A stretch of DNA of 64,000 bases from a virus (Duplodnaviria > Caudoviricetes). The notes below the pieces were generated by a model. It made no database searches. It worked only from the letters and a program-made list of their open reading frames with translations, and had not been told where the DNA came from. The translations under genes and the position numbers were made by a program. This document shows, piece by piece, positions 3,670 to 22,084 of the stretch (its first letter is position 1; each line of letters opens with the position of its first letter). The DNA lies in IMG/VR virus record IMGVR_UViG_3300006169_000009, positions 42,056 to 106,055 of that record. One strand, given 5' to 3'.

Positions 3670-6600
3670 TCAGGTTACGGGATGCCACACTCCGTCCTTC
3701 AGTACCCGAAGTTGCACGACCTTGCGGCGCTTGCCGTTGATGACTACGAACGGTCGCGCAGCGTGACGTACGCCGTCCATGAACACGGCCAGAATCTCTC
3801 CGACCGTCAGAGTGTTGACGTTCCAGCGGACGTCTAGGTTCCGGGCCAACTCCTGCTCGATGTGCCACATGAGGTCGGCATCGGCCAGGACCAGTCGTAC
3901 AGCATCCCAGCCGAACTCGATCTCCCGGTTCTGGACCTGACGGGTGTTCCAGGCGGCGTTCAATACAAGCGCCACAGCCTGAAGTGTGTGCCAAGAAAGG
4001 TACAGATCGTTCTCGGCTCGCTGCTGGCTCTCCCAGCCTGCCGCAAGATCCCGTAGCAGCCGCTCACGGACGTCCCAAGACAGGTCCGTCTCCTTAGCAG
4101 CCCAGCCGATCGTGTTCCACAAGGCCTCCAGGCTCAGGCCGACCAGTTCGAGGCCCTCGGTGTTCCACAGCAGTTCGGCATCCGAAGCCTGCCGCTGCAG
4201 CGCCTGCCAGGCCGCCTCCACCTCGGTCCCGGCCAACTCGTTCGAGGACCAGACCTGATCCAGGCTCTTCCCGACCTTCTCCTGGATCTCCCAGGAAGTG
4301 ATCAGTGCAGCCGCCAGTGCCGTACGGGAGTCCCACAGCAGGATGGAGTCGGCGCTGATGTTGGCCTCGATGTTCCACTCGATCACGCTCTGTGACTGGG
4401 CTACCTCCTGCGCGGCCCACAGCAGTTCAACCGCCTGCGAGGCCAGCGCGGAGACGTTCCACAGCGACTCGTAGTCCTGGCTGATGATGTCGAGCACGCC
4501 CCACTGAGCCGCAAGATCGGACAGAGTCTGGGCCAGCAGGTTCCAGACCAGGCTCACGTCCTGGTCGACAGCCTCCAGGACGTTCCAGAACAGGTCCACG
4601 CCAGCGGCCACCGATGCGATGTTCTGGACGTTCCACTCCAGGCCGACATCGTTACCCAATCTGAGAACGACATCCCACAGTGCGCTCAGTCCGTTACCGA
4701 CCGTAGCGTAGGCGTCCCAGCGCAGGTCACTGGTCTGGTTGATTGCAGCCCGTACGTCCCACGGAGTAGCCAGGGGGTTGTTGACCGCATTCAGCGCATC
4801 CCAGGATCCGGCGAAGTCCCGGCTGATCAGGCCCAGGGCGTTCCAGATAGCCGCTGAGTCTGCTGCCGCCAGAGCCTGGTCGTTCCACACCAGCGCAGAG
4901 TCTGCATTCTGCATAGCGAGCGCGTTCCAAATTGCCTGGTTGCTCAGCCCGGCCACGGCGTAGTCGTGCCAGATCGCCTGGTGGTCGGAGTTGACCGGCA
5001 CGCTGACGTTCCACAGTGCCTGCACTACCTGACTTGCGGCTGCGTAGACCTCCCACAGCGCCTGGCTGCTCTGCCCGACCAAGGCCGAAACGTTCCACAA
5101 CTTCTGGTTGCTCTGTCCGACCGAGACCAACGTGTCCCACACGTACTGGCTGCTTTGGTTGACCACAGTCGAGATGTTCCACAGAGCCTGGTTACTCTGG
5201 GTCACTAGACTGTTGAGGTTCCACAGAGCCTGGTTGCTCTGGTTGACTGCCGCGTAGACGTCCCAGACCTCCTGGACGTCAGCGTTGACCAGGCTTTGGA
5301 CGTTCCACTTCGCCTGGCTGGTCTTGCCTACCGACTCCGGGATCTCAGCAGCAGTGACCACCACGTTGCGGAACTGGGTCCGGGTACCGGCTGCGCCGAA
5401 CCAGACGTAGCCTCCTCGCCCCTGAGCCGTGTGCGTGGACGTGACGTTGGTGCCCAGCGTGAGGTTGTCCAGCCGGATCGAGGAGCCGGTCACGGTGATG
5501 CGGAACGTGTACCACGTGTCCAGCGTGAGTGTGCCTACGGTCGCCCAGGCGTCCACGACAGGGTCGGTGCCGTCTCCAGCCATAGCCCGGACCTGGAGGT
5601 TTCCGTTGCGCCGGAAGACACACGAGTAGCCCTGCCAGGTCGGGTTGCCGTCCGCGCCTCCGGCGAACCCGACCGTGTCCTCGTCCGCGAACGCGACCGT
5701 GAAGTTGGCGACCGCCGAGAATGACTCGACCATCTTGGCCTCGAAGTCCAGCGTCCAGGTGTCGTGGAAGGCACTGCCTCCGATGGGAGACATCCAACCC
5801 TGAAGGATCGCGGACTCCACCGAGGCCACGCCGATCTCGTTGTCGATCCCCCAGCCGTCCGGGGCGGTGAACTCACCGACCGTCGATCCGCCGTTGATCT
5901 GCCCACCGCTGTAGTACCCGTGGAACCACTCCTGGTCGGCGTACGGGTCAGCGGTCAGCCTGGCCTTGCCCGAGACGTAGGGAGCATCATCGGTGATGAT
6001 CCCGTCCGCGCCCATCTCCCTGGCCGCGTCCGCACTGGTCTTGTCGTTGATCGTCCACATCCACACCTCGATGCCTGCGGCATGCATGGAGTCGACGTAG
6101 GACTGGTCGACGGTGCCGAACTGAACGTTCTCCTGCACTGCCCCATCGGCAATCGGCACAGACGGGTTCGTACCCTGCGGGTCGCGATTCGCCAGCGGAT
6201 ACCCAGCCGTACGACAGGCGTCCTGGTAGGACTTGGTGAACGCTGGGATGATGACGTTGTCCTTGATCTGGACGTACTGGTCCAACAGATCGGGCAGCGC
6301 ATCTCCTGCCGCCTGGCTCTTAGGCTCAATGGACAGCAGAACCTGATCGGCGTAGAGAGTGAGTACTTCCTCCAACTTCGCCATCCGGTACACGCCCTGG
6401 TATCCGGGGTTGAGCAGGGCAGCAGGCTTGTACTGCAGTGCGTCCAGGGCTGCGTCCGTGGACGTGGCGATGGTCAGGTTCGATGTCATCAACGTGCCGG
6501 TCGTAGCGTTGTGGTGGCAGTACAGGGTGCCGTCGGCAGAGAGGTGGACGTCCATCTCCAGGCAGTTCGTGGTGCCGTCGGCCATGCAGGCGGCCATGGC

Positions 6601-17036: not shown

Positions 17037-17285
17037 TCAACCCTCCTGGATGTACCCGCGTGCAGCACCGTCGATACGGGCCGCCGAGAGCGCGCAGGCG
17101 GTAGGGCCAGAGCCCCAGCCACGCTCCTGGGTGGTGACCTTGGAGCCAGCGCGCATGGCGTCGGAGAGGGTGTACTTGGTCAGCACGCCCATCTCGATCT
17201 CACCCAGTTCCGCCTTCAGGGCCTGGGTCGCCTCCGGCCAGATCTCCTCCGTGGTCTTGGGAGTCTGCTTCTCCGTGGTGCTCAT
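17037..17285 (-). CDS. Hypothetical protein
   Basis: MSTTEK start after GAGGAAG. Confidence 0.65.
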   Translation of the reverse strand: MSTTEKQTPKTTEEIWPEATQALKAELGEIEMGVLTKYTLSDAMRAGSKVTTQERGWGSGPTACALSAARIDGAARGYIQEG

Positions 17286-18330
17286 CTGCTTCCTCACTTT
17301 CAGGGTTCTGGAACGACAGGTCACAGTCTAGCGTCTCCAGCCAGTCTGCGATAGCCTCTCGCGTCCACTTGTGGGTGTCGTTGAGATGCACGACTAGGTT
17401 GACGACGTAGTTGGTTCTGGGCATGGAACAGAACGTCTTTCCCTTGTTCTTGCGTACCGGACACTTTGCCTTGGCGGTCTTCAGCGCAGGGATGGCCTTG
17501 ACCAGTGCCCCGGTCATCGGGTGGTCCTCGTCGGTGTAAGAGGCTCCGCTATTGGCGGTGTACGGCGTCAACTTCGCCTGGTCTGGCGTGATGGTCTTCT
17601 TGGGCTTGTACTCGCCCTTGTGGACCACCAGCGGGAGCGCGTGGTCGAGGTTCGGGATCTGGTTGGATACCGTGGTGGGGGTCAGCAGACCCTCGATGAG
17701 AAGGTCGACAGCGGCCTCAGCCTGATGCTGGGCCAGACCGTGCTCCATCACGAGCCAACCGATCAGTTCCTGGGGATCGGTGGTGCCTACATGGAAGTGG
17801 AACTTCTCCGGGTCCTCATCCACCGGCTCCTCCATCTCGATGTTCGGGCTGCAGTTGTCGTAGGCAGTGAACGTGCCCATCTGTCGAAGAACGTGGACCT
17901 GTTCAAGAGTGTCCTGGACAGCCTCCCAAGGCTTGCCGTCAGTCCAGTCGCACACGAATACGATCTTCGATCCTGGTCGAAGACCGCGCAGTCCTCTCGG
18001 GTGATAGACGAACTTCGCGTCCAGATTCGTGCGAAGGTTGCGAACCTCACACCACAACTTGAAGCAGTTGTAGTTCATAGCCACGACGTAGTAAGGCTCG
18101 GGGGTGCGGAACAACTTCAGGCCCAGCAGGTTCTCCCACGTGTCGTGCTTGTGGGTGTTGGGCTTCATGTCGATGAGGACCTTCAGGCTGGCGTGCTGCG
18201 CAGGAGTCATGACGAAATCAACCGATCCACCAGTCTGGTGATTAGAGACAACCCCGCCGTACTTGTAGTCCTTGTATCCGACGGGCTTCCATGGCGAGGA
18301 GATCTGGTACAAACCATAAGACTGGGACAC
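17200..18330 (-). CDS. Hypothetical multi-module protein
   Basis: GTG start after GAGAGGAAG; C-terminal HLNDTHKWTREAIADWL motif. Confidence 0.6.
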   Translation of the reverse strand: MSQSYGLYQISSPWKPVGYKDYKYGGVVSNHQTGGSVDFVMTPAQHASLKVLIDMKPNTHKHDTWENLLGLKLFRTPEPYYVVAMNYNCFKLWCEVRNLRTNLDAKFVYHPRGLRGLRPGSKIVFVCDWTDGKPWEAVQDTLEQVHVLRQMGTFTAYDNCSPNIEMEEPVDEDPEKFHFHVGTTDPQELIGWLVMEHGLAQHQAEAAVDLLIEGLLTPTTVSNQIPNLDHALPLVVHKGEYKPKKTITPDQAKLTPYTANSGASYTDEDHPMTGALVKAIPALKTAKAKCPVRKNKGKTFCSMPRTNYVVNLVVHLNDTHKWTREAIADWLETLDCDLSFQNPESEEADEHHGEADSQDHGGDLAGGDPGPEGGTG

Positions 18331-18377
18331 TGCTTCCTCTCTCGTGCGCGTGGTGGGGTACTCAACAGTGGAGCCAG

Positions 18378-18455
18378 TGGAGATGGCGGGACTCGAACCC
18401 GCGTCCGCCGTCAGTCCGCATGCGGTCTTCCGACGTCGAACTACCATGCATCCCC
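18378..18455 (-). ncRNA. ssrA: Minimal tmRNA-like RNA (tRNA-like domain only)
   Basis: GGGGATG/CATCTCC-A acceptor with G3.U70, stemless D-loop ending TTCGAC, GACGCGGG-TTCGAGT-CCCGC T-arm; only about 29 nt where the mRNA domain would be. Confidence 0.75.
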
Positions 18456-18639: not shown

Positions 18640-18822
18640 TCAGCGCCGACGGCCCTGACAGGTGTTGAGGTGACCCAGCAAGGCCGGGCCGCCGATCTTG
18701 ATGAACGCCCCGCAGTGCCAGGGGCAGGCCCCGGTAGTGCGCTTGATGCCCATCTTCTTCATGTACGCGGCCATCTCCTGGTCAGACTTGGAGCGCGTGC
18801 CACGACGGTCGTTTGCGGACAT
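18640..18822 (-). CDS. Small Cys/His protein
   Basis: CPWHCG...HLNTC; AGGAAGGA RBS. Confidence 0.6.
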   Translation of the reverse strand: MSANDRRGTRSKSDQEMAAYMKKMGIKRTTGACPWHCGAFIKIGGPALLGHLNTCQGRRR

Positions 18823-18902: not shown

Positions 18903-19049
18903 CTACTTCTTGCGGCCCTTCTTGGCCTTCGCCTTCTTGGCGTCGGCGTTGCTGATGGCCGCAGCCTTGGACTTGCTCATGCCCTTGGCCTTCAACGCGT
19001 CGTACTCCGAAGGCTTCTTGATGCTCGGGCCGTGATCCTTACCTGGCAC
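18903..19049 (-). CDS. Small basic protein (host-like PGPSIK...YEAL...GMSK.KAAAI.N family)
   Basis: GTG start after GAGGAG; HGPSIKKPSEYDALKAKGMSKSKAAAISNA. Confidence 0.6.
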   Translation of the reverse strand: MPGKDHGPSIKKPSEYDALKAKGMSKSKAAAISNADAKKAKAKKGRKK

Positions 19050-19083
19050 TGTCCTTCTCCTCTCAGACATGGCCAGTGTAGCG

Positions 19084-19156
19084 AGCCCCTGACAGGATTC
19101 GAACCCGCATTTCGCCTGAGTCGTATTCAGGTGCCTCTCCGTTAGACTACAGGGGC
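19084..19156 (-). tRNA. tRNA-Arg(ACG)
   Basis: Cloverleaf; anticodon arm cctga-atACGac-tcagg. Confidence 0.85.
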
Positions 19157-19157
19157 G

Positions 19158-19231
19158 TGGAGATGCTTCCCGGAGTCGAACCGGGGTGAACGGGTTTGCA
19201 GCCCGCCGCCTAGCCTCTCGGCCAAAGCATC
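19158..19231 (-). tRNA. tRNA-Cys(GCA), CCA encoded
   Basis: Cloverleaf; ctGCAaa loop. Confidence 0.9.
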
Positions 19232-19235
19232 TCGG

Positions 19236-19319
19236 TGCAGGGTGAAGGACTCGAACCTCCAAGGTCAGATGACACCTGGTTTACAGCCAGGGACGCTACC
19301 AGTTACGCTCTAACCCTGC
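19236..19319 (-). tRNA. tRNA-Tyr(GTA)
   Basis: Cloverleaf with long variable arm; ctGTAaa loop. Confidence 0.9.
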
Positions 19320-19321
19320 GG

Positions 19322-19396
19322 GGTGGCGGACGGCCCTCGAAGCCGCTAATCGACAGATTCACAGTCTGCCCGCTCGTCCACTTCGCGTTCCGCCAC
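19322..19396 (-). tRNA. tRNA-His(GTG), divergent T-arm
   Basis: gtggcgg/ccgccac acceptor; ctGTGaa loop. Confidence 0.75.
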
Positions 19397-19398
19397 AG

Positions 19399-19469
19399 TG
19401 CTCCCAGAGGGATTCGAACCCCCAGTCACGGTGTGTAAGACCGATGGTTTGCCGTTAACCGACAGGAGC
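19399..19469 (-). tRNA. tRNA-Val(TAC)
   Basis: Cloverleaf; ctTACac loop. Confidence 0.85.
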
Positions 19470-19540
19470 AAACGGGCTTGGGGTGTCGACTGGTCCCCGC
19501 TTCACGGATTCAAACCGATGGACGAGCCCCGCGCCCAACG

Positions 19541-19612
19541 CGGTGAGTACGGGGATCGAACCCGTGGCCTTCCGGCTGACAACCGGCTGCGCTGCCTCTG
19601 CGCCAACCCACC
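19541..19612 (-). tRNA. tRNA-Asp(GTC)
   Basis: Cloverleaf; ttGTCag loop. Confidence 0.85.
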
Positions 19613-19617
19613 TAGCG

Positions 19618-19691
19618 TGGAGAATGAGGGACTCGAACCCTCCAGGCCGCGATCTTGCAAGGATCGCCCGGGTAACCCGTGCCCATTCCCC
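19618..19691 (-). tRNA. tRNA-Ala(TGC), atypical D-arm
   Basis: G3.U70 acceptor; ctTGCaa loop. Confidence 0.8.
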
Positions 19692-19692
19692 T

Positions 19693-19768
19693 TGGCTGAT
19701 CTGGTAGGACTCGAACCTACAACCCCCTGATTAACAGTCAGGTGCGCTGCCAATTGCGCCACAGACCA
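19693..19768 (-). tRNA. tRNA-Asn(GTT), CCA encoded
   Basis: Cloverleaf; ctGTTaa loop. Confidence 0.92.
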
Positions 19769-19773
19769 ATGAG

Positions 19774-19846
19774 TAGCGGTGACGGGATTCGAACCCGTAG
19801 TACCCAGATTATGAGTCTGGCGTGTTGCCGATTACACCACACCGCG
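19774..19846 (-). tRNA. tRNA-Met(CAT) with C1:U72 mismatch
   Basis: Cloverleaf; ctCATaa loop. Confidence 0.88.
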
Positions 19847-19851
19847 ATGCG

Positions 19852-19924
19852 TACGCCCAGTAGGACTCGAACCTACAACCCTCTGATTAAGAGTCAGATG
19901 CTCTACCAATTGAGCCATAGGCGC
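19852..19924 (-). tRNA. tRNA-Lys(CTT)
   Basis: Cloverleaf; ctCTTaa loop. Confidence 0.92.
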
Positions 19925-20022
19925 ATGTTGCTGACTTGCCCAACAAGGTTGTGCCACGTTGTTGGCGCTTCCGCAGGGCTAGGCACGTTAGAGCCCCCGC
20001 ACCGACTGTCAGCGAGCCGTCG

Positions 20023-20096
20023 TGTCCTCGGAGGGACTTGAACCCCCAACCTGCAGGCTCTCGACCTGCCGCCTCTGCCGATTGGGCTACGAGGAC
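20023..20096 (-). tRNA. tRNA-Leu(GAG), C33, short variable loop
   Basis: gcagg-tcGAGag-cctgc anticodon arm. Confidence 0.8.
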
Positions 20097-20173
20097 AAGC
20101 CCGGACGTCTCCGGGTCGTTCTCATTACGTCGGGTGGCTCCACACCGGCTCGTCAGCCGGGATCACCCGAGGG

Positions 20174-20247
20174 TATCCGTGGAGGGACTCGAACCCCCAA
20201 CATCTTGATCCTGAATCAAGCGCCTCTGCCAGTTGGACTACACGGAC
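20174..20247 (-). tRNA. tRNA-Leu(CAG), short variable loop
   Basis: cttga-ttCAGga-tcaag anticodon arm. Confidence 0.85.
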
Positions 20248-20334
20248 ATGCGTGGGGATACCATTCGCCCCACCACCAGGCTCTACAATCCCATTCCACC
20301 TCGGCTCCCGTAGGCTTCGGCCCTGGCCCTTACG

Positions 20335-20418
20335 CGGAGAGAGCAGGATTCGAACCTGCGGGACGCGAGGCCCACTGAGTTAGCAACTCAGCGCAATAAA
20401 CCGCTCTGCCACCTCTCC
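20335..20418 (-). tRNA. tRNA-Ser(GCT)
   Basis: Long variable arm; ttGCTaa loop. Confidence 0.9.
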
Positions 20419-20494
20419 TGGACCCCCCAGCAGGATTCGAACCCGCAACGCCCGGCTTAGAACACCGTCAGTCTATCCGTTGACCTATAGGGGG
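20419..20494 (-). tRNA. tRNA-Arg(TCT), CCA encoded
   Basis: gtTCTaa loop; canonical T-arm. Confidence 0.8.
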
Positions 20495-20498
20495 ATAG

Positions 20499-20573
20499 TG
20501 CGCTGCTCAGGGCTCGAACCTGAAACATCCGGGGTTTGAATCCGGCACCTCTGCCAAATTGGGTCAGCAGCGC
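20499..20573 (-). tRNA. tRNA-Leu(CAA), short variable loop
   Basis: ttCAAac loop. Confidence 0.82.
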
Positions 20574-20692
20574 GTGTGCGAGTCTGCAAGCGCACTCGGC
20601 GCGTTATCGGTGCTTCACGTACCGTCGTCAGGCCAAAGGCTTCTTTCCCTCTTCCGTCGAAGAGGATCGAGAACGGTAACTTGCAGACCCAG

Positions 20693-20776
20693 AGGAGGGT
20701 AGAGGGTTCGAACCCCTGCCCCGAAGGACACTCCAGTTTTCTAGACTGGTCGCCAGCCACTCCAGCAGTACCCTCC
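20693..20776 (-). tRNA. tRNA-Ser(AGA)
   Basis: ccagt-ctAGAaa-actgg anticodon arm; long variable arm. Confidence 0.8.
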
Positions 20777-20780
20777 GAAG

Positions 20781-20853
20781 TACCCCCAACGGGATTCGAA
20801 CCCGTGTTAGCGGCTTGAAAGGCCGCCGTCCTAGTCCACTAGACGATAAGGGT
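20781..20853 (-). tRNA. tRNA-Glu(TTC)
   Basis: ctTTCaa loop. Confidence 0.9.
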
Positions 20854-20854
20854 A

Positions 20855-20930
20855 TGGCAGTCCGTGCGGGAGTCGAACCCGCGTCACCTGGCTGAGAACC
20901 AGACATCCTGGGCCACTAGACGAACGGACC
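20855..20930 (-). tRNA. tRNA-Glu(CTC), CCA encoded
   Basis: ttCTCag loop. Confidence 0.9.
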
Positions 20931-20995
20931 AAGTGCTGTGGCTTGTCGGACCAGAGCATGAGTCAGCAGGCCCGAGTGGACCTCCAACACCGGAG

Positions 20996-21069
20996 TTGGG
21001 GTGGCAGGGCTTGAACCTGCGCATCCGTGCTTATCAGGCACGAGCCTTGACCGACTTGGCTACACCCCA
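20996..21069 (-). tRNA. tRNA-Ile(GAT)
   Basis: ctGATaa loop. Confidence 0.88.
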
Positions 21070-21074
21070 TCGCG

Positions 21075-21146
21075 CTCCTCCCCAAGGACTCGAACCTCGA
21101 CCGGATGAATCAGAGTCACCCGTGCTGCCAATTACACCAAGGAGGA
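21075..21146 (-). tRNA. tRNA-Gln(CTG)
   Basis: ctCTGat loop. Confidence 0.9.
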
Positions 21147-21252
21147 AAGACGCGGACCCATGGCACTACATGGGCTACCCGCTCTGACCACCCCAGGTCT
21201 GCACCGTCCTCTGTGCAGTGTTCAGGCGAGGACACCTTGGGGGAGTGCGCAG

Positions 21253-21326
21253 AGCCTCGTGGAGGATTCGAACCCCCAGCGCGCTGATTACTAAACAGCC
21301 GTTCTGCCAGTTGGAACTAACGAGGC
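21253..21326 (-). tRNA. tRNA-Thr(AGT)
   Basis: gctgt-ttAGTaa-tcagc anticodon arm; canonical D and T arms. Confidence 0.8.
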
Positions 21327-21400
21327 ATGCGTACCGTGTTCGCGAAGGGCGGTACAACCCCTCCTCTAGAACGCCGCTTGTGCGACGGTGCGATCATACG

Positions 21401-21472
21401 AGCGCCGCAGGGGACTCGAACCCCCACCCTATGCTTGGAAGGCATCGATGCTGCCATTAACACCAACGGCGC
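21401..21472 (-). tRNA. tRNA-Gly(TCC)
   Basis: ctTCCaa loop. Confidence 0.88.
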
Positions 21473-21658
21473 GTGTGTCGGGGACGCAGCGCGGAAACGA
21501 GGGGCGTGATCAGTCTCTCGCATGGACCTTGCTTCGCCAGGAGGCAGCGTTGACGCCCCCGACTTTTATCACCATGACCCAACCCTTCGGTTGAGTAGTT
21601 GAAGCGCGGAGTGGAAGACATCCGCCGTGGGGGCGTAGTTTGTGGCCCCGCGCTTCTG

Positions 21659-21731
21659 TGCCGCCCCGAGGACTCGAACCTCGGCCTCCCGGTTTTCAGC
21701 CGGGCGCTCTACCTGTTGTCGCTAGAGCGGC
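21659..21731 (-). tRNA. tRNA-Phe(GAA)
   Basis: ctGAAaa loop. Confidence 0.88.
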
Positions 21732-21790
21732 ATGAGCGGGTCTAGGGTTGTCGACACTTAGCCCCATCGAGGGGGACTCTAGGCCCGCAG

Positions 21791-21864
21791 TCTGAGTGGG
21801 AGGATTTGAACCCCCGACCTCCTGAACCCAAATCAGGCGGCATACCTGGCTTGCCTACACTCAG
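21791..21864 (-). tRNA. tRNA-Pro(TGG)
   Basis: ttTGGgt loop. Confidence 0.88.
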
Positions 21865-21967
21865 ATCGACAGGGCTTGGCAGGCCCTGTCATGGCTCCAC
21901 TGTTGAGTTCTCAATGTGCAAGTGGTTCGGGCTTCCACCTCCCGGCTTCTTGCCCGCCCACGAGAAG

Positions 21968-21997: not shown

Positions 21998-22009
21998 GAG
22001 GTCTTCTAG

Positions 22010-22084
22010 CCCCGGTGTGAGGAATCGAACCCCAGCAGCAAGAGTTTTGGAGGCTCTCCGTCGTACGCCACCGACTGCACCGGA
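22010..22084 (-). tRNA. tRNA-Trp(CCA), divergent
   Basis: ctCCAaa loop; GGTTCGATTCC T-arm. Confidence 0.7.

Follow-up and report, generated by a model that had tools for sequence, protein, structure and literature searches.

AlaRS recognises G3·U70 together with A73, and canonical tmRNA (SsrA) carries both within its tRNA-like domain (TLD), with a 7-bp acceptor stem, a T-arm and a stemless D-loop. Attached to this are an mRNA-like domain, which holds the resume codon and tag frame, and the pseudoknots PK1-PK4. SmpB binds the elbow of the TLD, with its Trp122 in a pocket formed by A15, U17 and A334, while G19, stacked on C18, lies against a leucine patch; the G19C change abolishes SmpB binding, and helix H2 (P2) points outward between the ribosomal subunits (PMC8363625). 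A tmRNA reduced to the TLD has been described in mycobacteriophage DS6A, in the section of Hudson, Lau and Williams 2014 (PMC4131195) that deals with it and that cites Mao et al. 2009. In the published record the phage TLD-only tmRNA is a single curiosity, that of DS6A. According to the relevant passage of the 2025 tmRNA database paper (PMC11915505), which cites Mao et al. 2009, a TLD-only form inhibits endogenous tmRNA in E. coli; the corresponding passage of PMC4131195 likewise cites inhibition from Mao et al. 2009, with chargeability not required.

The locus described here lies in a 64,000-nt stretch of DNA (the window). This stretch covers bases 42056-106055 of an IMG/VR virus record of 106,055 bp, which CheckV rates complete and which we assign to an uncultured Streptomyces-type phage. 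The original prediction was of a 78-nt tmRNA stripped to its tRNA-like domain, and each hallmark it listed (G3·U70, A73, a stemless D-loop ending UUCGAC, and GAC before the T-arm) is present on the minus strand. From 18455 to 18378 on that strand the element reads:

GGGGAUG-CAUGGUAG-UUCGAC-GUCGG-AAGA-CCGCAUGCGG-A-CUGAC-GGC-GGAC-GCGGG-UUCGAGU-CCCGC-CAUCUCC-A

Its parts are as follows, R1 being the family covariance model.

18378-18455, minus strand: gene of the mini-tmRNA (TLD-only), 78 nt, running from G1 (18455) to discriminator A73 (18378) (Rfam RF00023 and R1)
18449-18455, minus strand: 5' strand of the acceptor stem, GGGGAUG, with G3 at 18453; 7/7 pairs with 18379-18385
18378-18385, minus strand: 3' strand of the acceptor stem, CAUCUCC (U70 at 18381), and discriminator A73 (18378) (sequence reading, family alignment)
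18435-18448, minus strand: stemless D-loop analogue, CAUGGUAGUUCGAC (Rfam alignment)
18407-18434, minus strand: P2-like stub helix, 4-6 bp, register ambiguous (fold, palindrome search, Rfam alignment)
18403-18406, minus strand: GGAC before the T-arm, its A corresponding to E. coli A334, which lies in the pocket for SmpB Trp122 (Rfam alignment; PMC8363625)
18386-18402, minus strand: T-arm GCGGG-UUCGAGU-CCCGC, with a 5-bp stem and UUCGAGU loop (sequence, Rfam and family alignments)

G3 (18453) pairs with U70 (18381) in the acceptor stem. The D-stem is absent, and the UUCGAC that ends the D-loop (18440-18435) is, in the Rfam alignment, the equivalent of E. coli U16-C21, including the SmpB-contacting U17, C18 and G19; together with A334, the equivalents of these contacts (PMC8363625) are all present in the RNA. 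Between UUCGAC and GGAC, 28 nt stand in place of the pseudoknots and tag ORF, as predicted in the form of a short hairpin: the stub helix encloses an A-rich internal loop and a CCG-CAUG-CGG hairpin (18416-18425). The register of P2 differs by method. In the Rfam alignment, GUCG pairs with CGGC and the helix directly abuts UUCGAC and GGAC, while R1 and the minimum-free-energy fold both pair GUCGG with CUGAC and leave GGC bulged. The z-score of the element in single-sequence folding, -1.6, is unremarkable. CCA is not encoded (CUG follows A73), which is normal for this operon because just 4 of the 25 neighbouring tRNAs encode it.

The search with Rfam RF00023, one of the checks proposed with the original prediction, supports the assignment: a global match to model positions 1-374 scores 54.5 bits (gathering score 47; E ~1e-18), with 308 interior model positions replaced by 14 nt. 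This match is lost or degraded on very short stretches, owing to truncation handling by the Rfam search. ARAGORN, also proposed, called 25 tRNAs in the window and did not call the mini-tmRNA. R1 was built from 20 members of one length class, with the window and DS6A excluded; it scores the element at 61.4 bits (E ~1e-13) and the best true tRNA in the window, tRNA-Ala at 19617-19691, at 19.5 bits.

Other RNA classes were considered and rejected. The element is not a tRNA-Ala (RF00005): it has no anticodon arm or D-stem, drew no ARAGORN call, and has tmRNA as its best Rfam clan member. A split or two-piece tmRNA (RF01849-51, RF04321) is unsupported because a permissive Rfam pass found no second tmRNA-like piece in the window and no tag-like frame ending [LVIA]AA-stop was found on the operon strand between 18300 and 22000. 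The whole phage record has one strong RF00023 match, and a weak RF04321 match covers the T-arm region only. A bacterial Y RNA (YrlA) acting with Ro60 was set aside on the lack of a TROVE domain in the phage and on the free acceptor ends with their alanine identity set.

How does the element compare with the described systems? The TLD and the first P2a pairs of canonical SsrA (RF00023) align with it position for position. In contrast, the ~308 positions that hold PK1, the resume codon and tag ORF, H5 and PK2-4 are missing from the window element, so it has neither an mRNA-like domain with resume codon and tag frame nor PK1-PK4. The CDS-less organellar tmRNAs of jakobid mitochondria and Mallomonadaceae plastids (PMC11915505), compared by description, are also approximately a TLD without a tag frame, but they are cellular, are products of reductive evolution and work with a dedicated SmpB that is imported. 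The DS6A element and the homologous loci discussed below, which are unannotated or lie under a CDS, are located at:

JN698994, 28478-28560: TLD-only tmRNA of DS6A (tmRNA Website tmID 11587 / Phage__Mycobacterium.9)
PP725410.1, 17023-17265: homologous locus in GiJojo (gp44)
KX925554.1, 97140-97220: homologous locus in BRock
OR725492.1, 18155-18234: homologous locus

The DS6A RNA shares with the window element the 7-bp acceptor stem, G3·U70, A73, a stemless D-loop ending in GAC, the T-arm, a short P2, the A-rich loop with a CCGCAYGCGG hairpin (CCGCACGCGG), a length of ~80 nt and the lack of a tag frame. It differs in having GUCGAC for UUCGAC and GCAC for GGAC. DS6A, a temperate mycobacteriophage of 60 kb, has its copy by itself between lysis and replication genes, not as the last gene of a tRNA operon, and unlike the window phage it encodes RtcB. 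The element described here thus lacks the tag frame and pseudoknots of canonical tmRNA and has every DS6A-type feature that could be examined, namely a TLD of 60-90 nt with a short, hairpin-closed P2, no tag frame, and one covariance model shared with DS6A and other members; it is therefore of the DS6A-type TLD-only form. The predicted determinants of alanylation and of SmpB and EF-Tu binding are present in it. It belongs to the same family as the DS6A element, and that it is a functional TLD-only (“mini”) tmRNA gene is part of our best explanation, which we hold with moderate confidence.

Megablast found no near-identical phage record, returning one irrelevant 53-nt match, and blastn of the element against cultured phages matched the T-arm regions of full-length tmRNAs only; such full-length tmRNAs occur in other actinophages. 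By terminase, the closest cultured relatives of the phage are five Streptomyces phages of ~113 kb, BRock, Alone3, LuckySocke, GiJojo and pSt2308, with ~60% identity. With the Rfam model, BRock, Alone3, GiJojo and pSt2308 each give one ~80-nt tmRNA match, within the tRNA region, and no full-length tmRNA; the LuckySocke copy was found by blastn. R1 scores are 53-80 bits for four of these Streptomyces phages and 55.5 for DS6A, with the window at 61.4. All five phages resemble the window in having a ~78-nt element in the tRNA region, an inner GCCGCAYGCGG hairpin and compensatory changes in the acceptor stem. They differ in that their tRNA arrays are interrupted by CDSs. The Alone3 copy seems weakened: it has CACGAC and a single mismatch in the T-stem, and the Rfam model gives it 36.8 bits. 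GenBank annotates nothing at this spot in BRock and Alone3, and in GiJojo it lies under the “hypothetical protein” CDS gp44. Genes for a Ro-like RNA-binding protein and for an RNA ligase are likewise present in BRock-group phages.

The family extends well beyond these phages. A first scan of viral contigs used a pattern of UUCGAC, 10-40 nt, and GGAC plus the T-arm core, so that conservation of UUCGAC, GGAC and the T-loop in this set is forced by the search; the acceptor stem was unconstrained. It yielded at least 120 loci. Among the 120 listed, 113 can be closed by a perfect 7-bp acceptor stem into molecules of 75-81 nt, which include 80 distinct sequences; G3·U70 and A73 are present in all 113, and ~96% have C at the next position. 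As a control, the same pattern was run on the genomes of 185,579 bacterial and archaeal species, where it again matched at least 120 loci. The pattern does not itself force closure, because only 4 of the 120 genome loci listed close; the remaining listed matches are pieces of ordinary tmRNAs. Judged by these scans, the short closed form is essentially viral. A looser viral scan, fixing only G1-3, GAC, the T-loop core and TCCA, added at least 95 new loci and ~50 or more extra distinct closed molecules that are not tRNAs. In this set the A334-equivalent base is A in 43/50 sequences, the tetramer before the T-arm is GGAC in 22/50, and the D-loop is mainly YUCGAC-like. Together, the two scans found at least ~160 contigs with closed 70-81-nt versions. 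The original prediction had called such a form rare, not unprecedented; the DS6A precedent holds, both elements belonging to one R1 family, whereas the rarity does not survive these counts.

Several features of individual loci were seen along the way. Five loci (L277, L278, L283, L330 and L332) have GCAGGAC for UUCGAC, AGAC before the T-arm and a different inner layout, and may represent a distinct mini-TLD lineage. At L063, positions 5905-6228 on the minus strand, a 324-nt tmRNA predicted by ARAGORN and a closed 80-nt mini form have a common 3' end; the prediction may be spurious, or the two may be nested. The loose scan also returned viral tRNA-Ala-like genes of 68-71 nt with a UGC anticodon loop and a reduced or absent D-arm:

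L316, 2288-2355: short tRNA-Ala-like gene
L260, 1047-1117: short tRNA-Ala-like gene
L346, 344-413: short tRNA-Ala-like gene
L292, 1424-1494: short tRNA-Ala-like gene

Is the structure maintained by selection? The 20-sequence alignment underlying R1 was not fitted to the structure, because it comprises one length class and has no gaps. In it, 94.5% of cells form standard pairs, compared with 70% for shuffled partners and 40-50% for slid ones, and changes on both sides occur in every one of the seven P2 pairs and in two of the three pairs of the inner hairpin. When 85 distinct sequences are aligned to R1, pairing holds in 95.7% of cells, and double-sided changes are seen at 17 of 22 pairs. There is no variation at G1-C72, G2-C71, G3·U70 or A73 in any of the 85. 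These patterns of covariation indicate that the RNA structure is under selection across the family. Since the AlaRS identity set is invariant, and a pure SmpB sponge would not need it, the alignment also suggests that charging matters for the family.

The same data bear on whether the element is a dead remnant, either derived by deletion from a full-length phage tmRNA or left as an ssrA attP fragment. In favour, fragments of ssrA are found in phages that integrate at that gene, and full-length tmRNAs in other actinophages. However, the 5' and 3' halves are both present and perfectly paired, more than 125 distinct family sequences keep a uniform length of 70-81 nt with compensatory changes, and relatives show no random decay at the locus. 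An attP fragment was rejected on the same pairing of its halves and on the lack of a PF00589 (tyrosine) integrase in the window phage; in DS6A the integrase lies 10 kb from the mini-tmRNA. We consider a dead remnant barely credible.

In the window phage, the mini-tmRNA is on the same strand as the 25 tRNA genes called by ARAGORN and is the last RNA gene of a tRNA operon of about 23-24 tRNAs. The features around it are:

22009-22084: tRNA-Trp, outside the inverted-repeat bracket
21892-21908, minus strand: 5' arm, 27 nt upstream of tRNA-Pro, of a long-range inverted repeat with perfect 17-nt arms
19083-21864, minus strand: 24 co-oriented tRNA genes inside the bracket (ARAGORN, Rfam tRNA matches)
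18903-19070, minus strand: gene for a DUF7218 protein, 55 aa (Pfam PF23855, E=1e-14)
18360-18376, minus strand: 3' arm of the 17-nt repeat, starting 2 nt after A73
17200-18330, minus strand: 376-aa ORF with a likely GTG start at 18330 and a GAGAGGAAG ribosome-binding site, 47 nt downstream of the RNA

The two repeat arms are 100% complementary in a repeat search, and by our own calculation ~5e-4 such pairs are expected in 4.1 kb. On a minus-strand transcript the resulting 17-bp long-range stem would enclose everything from tRNA-Pro through the mini-tmRNA, an arrangement reminiscent of the processing stalks of rRNA operons. A search of the BRock, GiJojo and Alone3 loci did not find the 17-nt bracket. 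The stretch from the 5' arm to tRNA-Pro (21865-21891, minus strand) contains a perfect small hairpin, GACAGGGC-CUGCCAA-GCCCUGUC. A promoter and terminator scan found none passing near the mini-tmRNA or at the head of the operon; a promoter-like site seen by eye, TTGACA-18-TAAGGT at ~21996-21967 on the minus strand, failed the scanner rule.

The DUF7218 gene occupies part of the 627-nt spacer between tRNA-Arg and the mini-tmRNA, and a second ORF at 18640-18822 (60 aa) has no family match. For the 376-aa ORF, no match was found in Pfam, PHROG or the ESM Atlas. A naive call of this ORF, 17200-18447, begins at an ATG inside the mini-tmRNA. Searches of the phage found no genes for SmpB, TROVE/Ro, RtcB, a CCA-adding enzyme, RF-1/ArfB, Pth or a tyrosine integrase. 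Without its own SmpB, CCA enzyme, RF-1/ArfB or Pth, the phage would need host partners.

Across the family, tRNAs within 1 kb of a mini-tmRNA are on the same strand in 64 of 65 cases. No general protein neighbour was found to recur next to family members. One group has the mini-tmRNA among capsid, protease and portal genes, and others have it among replication genes (helicase, primase, endonuclease VII). A large subgroup (L083, L086, L093 and ~20 other IMG/VR loci) has it between a prohead serine protease gene and an HK97-type major capsid gene, on the same strand and within the late structural operon.

These positions raise the question of whether the element serves as punctuation, providing an RNase P/RNase Z site that splits the tRNA operon from the downstream mRNA, with the excised RNA itself having no role. 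Its location 47 nt upstream of a co-oriented ORF would suit this function, as would the same-strand site between prohead protease and capsid genes in ~20 other phages, where cleavage would separate the two mRNAs. Yet G3·U70, A73, UUCGAC and GGAC are conserved although unnecessary for cleavage, any of the 25 adjacent tRNAs could supply cleavage sites, and the genomic contexts of the family are heterogeneous. Hence, we regard a role in processing alone as very improbable.

We propose instead that the mini-tmRNA is a host-matured, alanylated, SmpB-binding competitor of host tmRNA that suppresses tagging, a mechanism towards which the evidence leans. The RNA would be transcribed as the last member of the tRNA operon, enclosed by the 17-bp long-range stem, and would be excised and trimmed by host tRNA-processing enzymes. 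A host enzyme would add CCA, and host AlaRS would charge the product with alanine through G3·U70 and A73. The UUCGAC...GGAC elbow would then bind host SmpB, allowing the mini-tmRNA to compete with host tmRNA for SmpB, EF-Tu and stalled ribosomes. Because it has no resume codon, tag frame or pseudoknots, it cannot serve as template for a degradation tag, and as a result of the competition ssrA tagging would be suppressed in the infected cell. We infer that the RNA is expressed, processed and charged, that it binds SmpB and that trans-translation is affected.

The original prediction offered two functions, an SmpB decoy that inhibits host trans-translation and a tag-free rescue RNA. These may be taken as the two leading readings, and the decoy has indirect experimental precedent in the inhibition that PMC4131195 and PMC11915505 cite from Mao et al. 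2009. However, the inhibition as given in PMC4131195 needed no chargeability, so the strict conservation of G3·U70 and A73 is not explained by simple titration of SmpB. That conservation may point to a role at the level of the ribosome.

What would such a role be? In tag-free rescue, Ala-mini-tmRNA with SmpB and EF-Tu would enter the empty A site of a stalled ribosome and accept the nascent chain. The peptidyl-RNA would then be released by host Pth, ArfB or drop-off, or more alanines would be added in further rounds; ribosomes would be recycled and phage proteins left unmarked for degradation. Several observations fit: the alanine identity elements, unneeded by a pure sponge, are invariant in 85/85 sequences; the EF-Tu-binding acceptor and T arms are intact; and the stub P2 is compatible with H2 pointing between the subunits (PMC8363625). 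Furthermore, CDS-less tmRNAs are kept alongside SmpB in some mitochondria and plastids, where they are thought to be helpful (PMC11915505). Against this, the sole experiments cited in the relevant passages of PMC4131195 and PMC11915505 report inhibition, no phage release activity (RF-1/ArfB, Pth) was found, no conserved protein partner lies beside family members, and without a resume codon there would be nothing to decode after translocation. We therefore consider tag-free rescue unlikely.

An alternative target for a tmRNA mimic is host defence. As an anti-defence decoy, the RNA would occupy a host factor other than SmpB, candidates being SmpB-like sensor domains (the SPB domains of CoCoNuT systems), RNase R, and nucleases directed at tRNA or tmRNA. 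Some defence systems contain SmpB-like domains for which tmRNA binding is predicted (PMC11090510), and in one phage anti-CRISPR the agents are t(m)RNA fragments, which bind to Cas10-Csm and RNase R (PMC11662646). Carriers of the mini-tmRNA often encode RNA-repair or quality-control genes, such as RtcB in DS6A and the Ro-like protein and RNA ligase of the BRock group. This support is purely circumstantial, however. Neither Ro nor RtcB is present in the window phage, no defence or anti-defence neighbour recurs across the family, and conservation of the alanine identity set would be left unexplained. We judge a decoy of this kind improbable.

Taken more broadly, a charged mini-tmRNA may act on the ribosome, by template-free rescue that adds C-terminal alanine(s) and no ssrA tag, or may decoy SmpB-like defence sensors or RNase R. 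We entertain this tentatively as an alternative to competition with host tmRNA; it would explain the invariant alanine set in more than 85 sequences despite charge-independent inhibition.

Our analysis goes beyond the literature searched in the family's size and confinement to viruses, in its presence in cultured Streptomyces phages, in the invariance of the alanine identity set, and in the terminal position of the window copy in a stalk-bracketed tRNA operon. Surveys of phage tmRNAs based on ARAGORN are blind to the TLD-only form, and a CDS called over the RNA is a recurring annotation error. The form is nonetheless common in phages: the family is large, virus-specific, under selection and mostly unannotated. 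It probably interferes with the rescue-and-tag system of the host. Unannotated copies in cultured Streptomyces phages that grow on S. lividans provide a tractable system, which makes it testable what a message-less tmRNA does and why viruses tamper with ribosome rescue.
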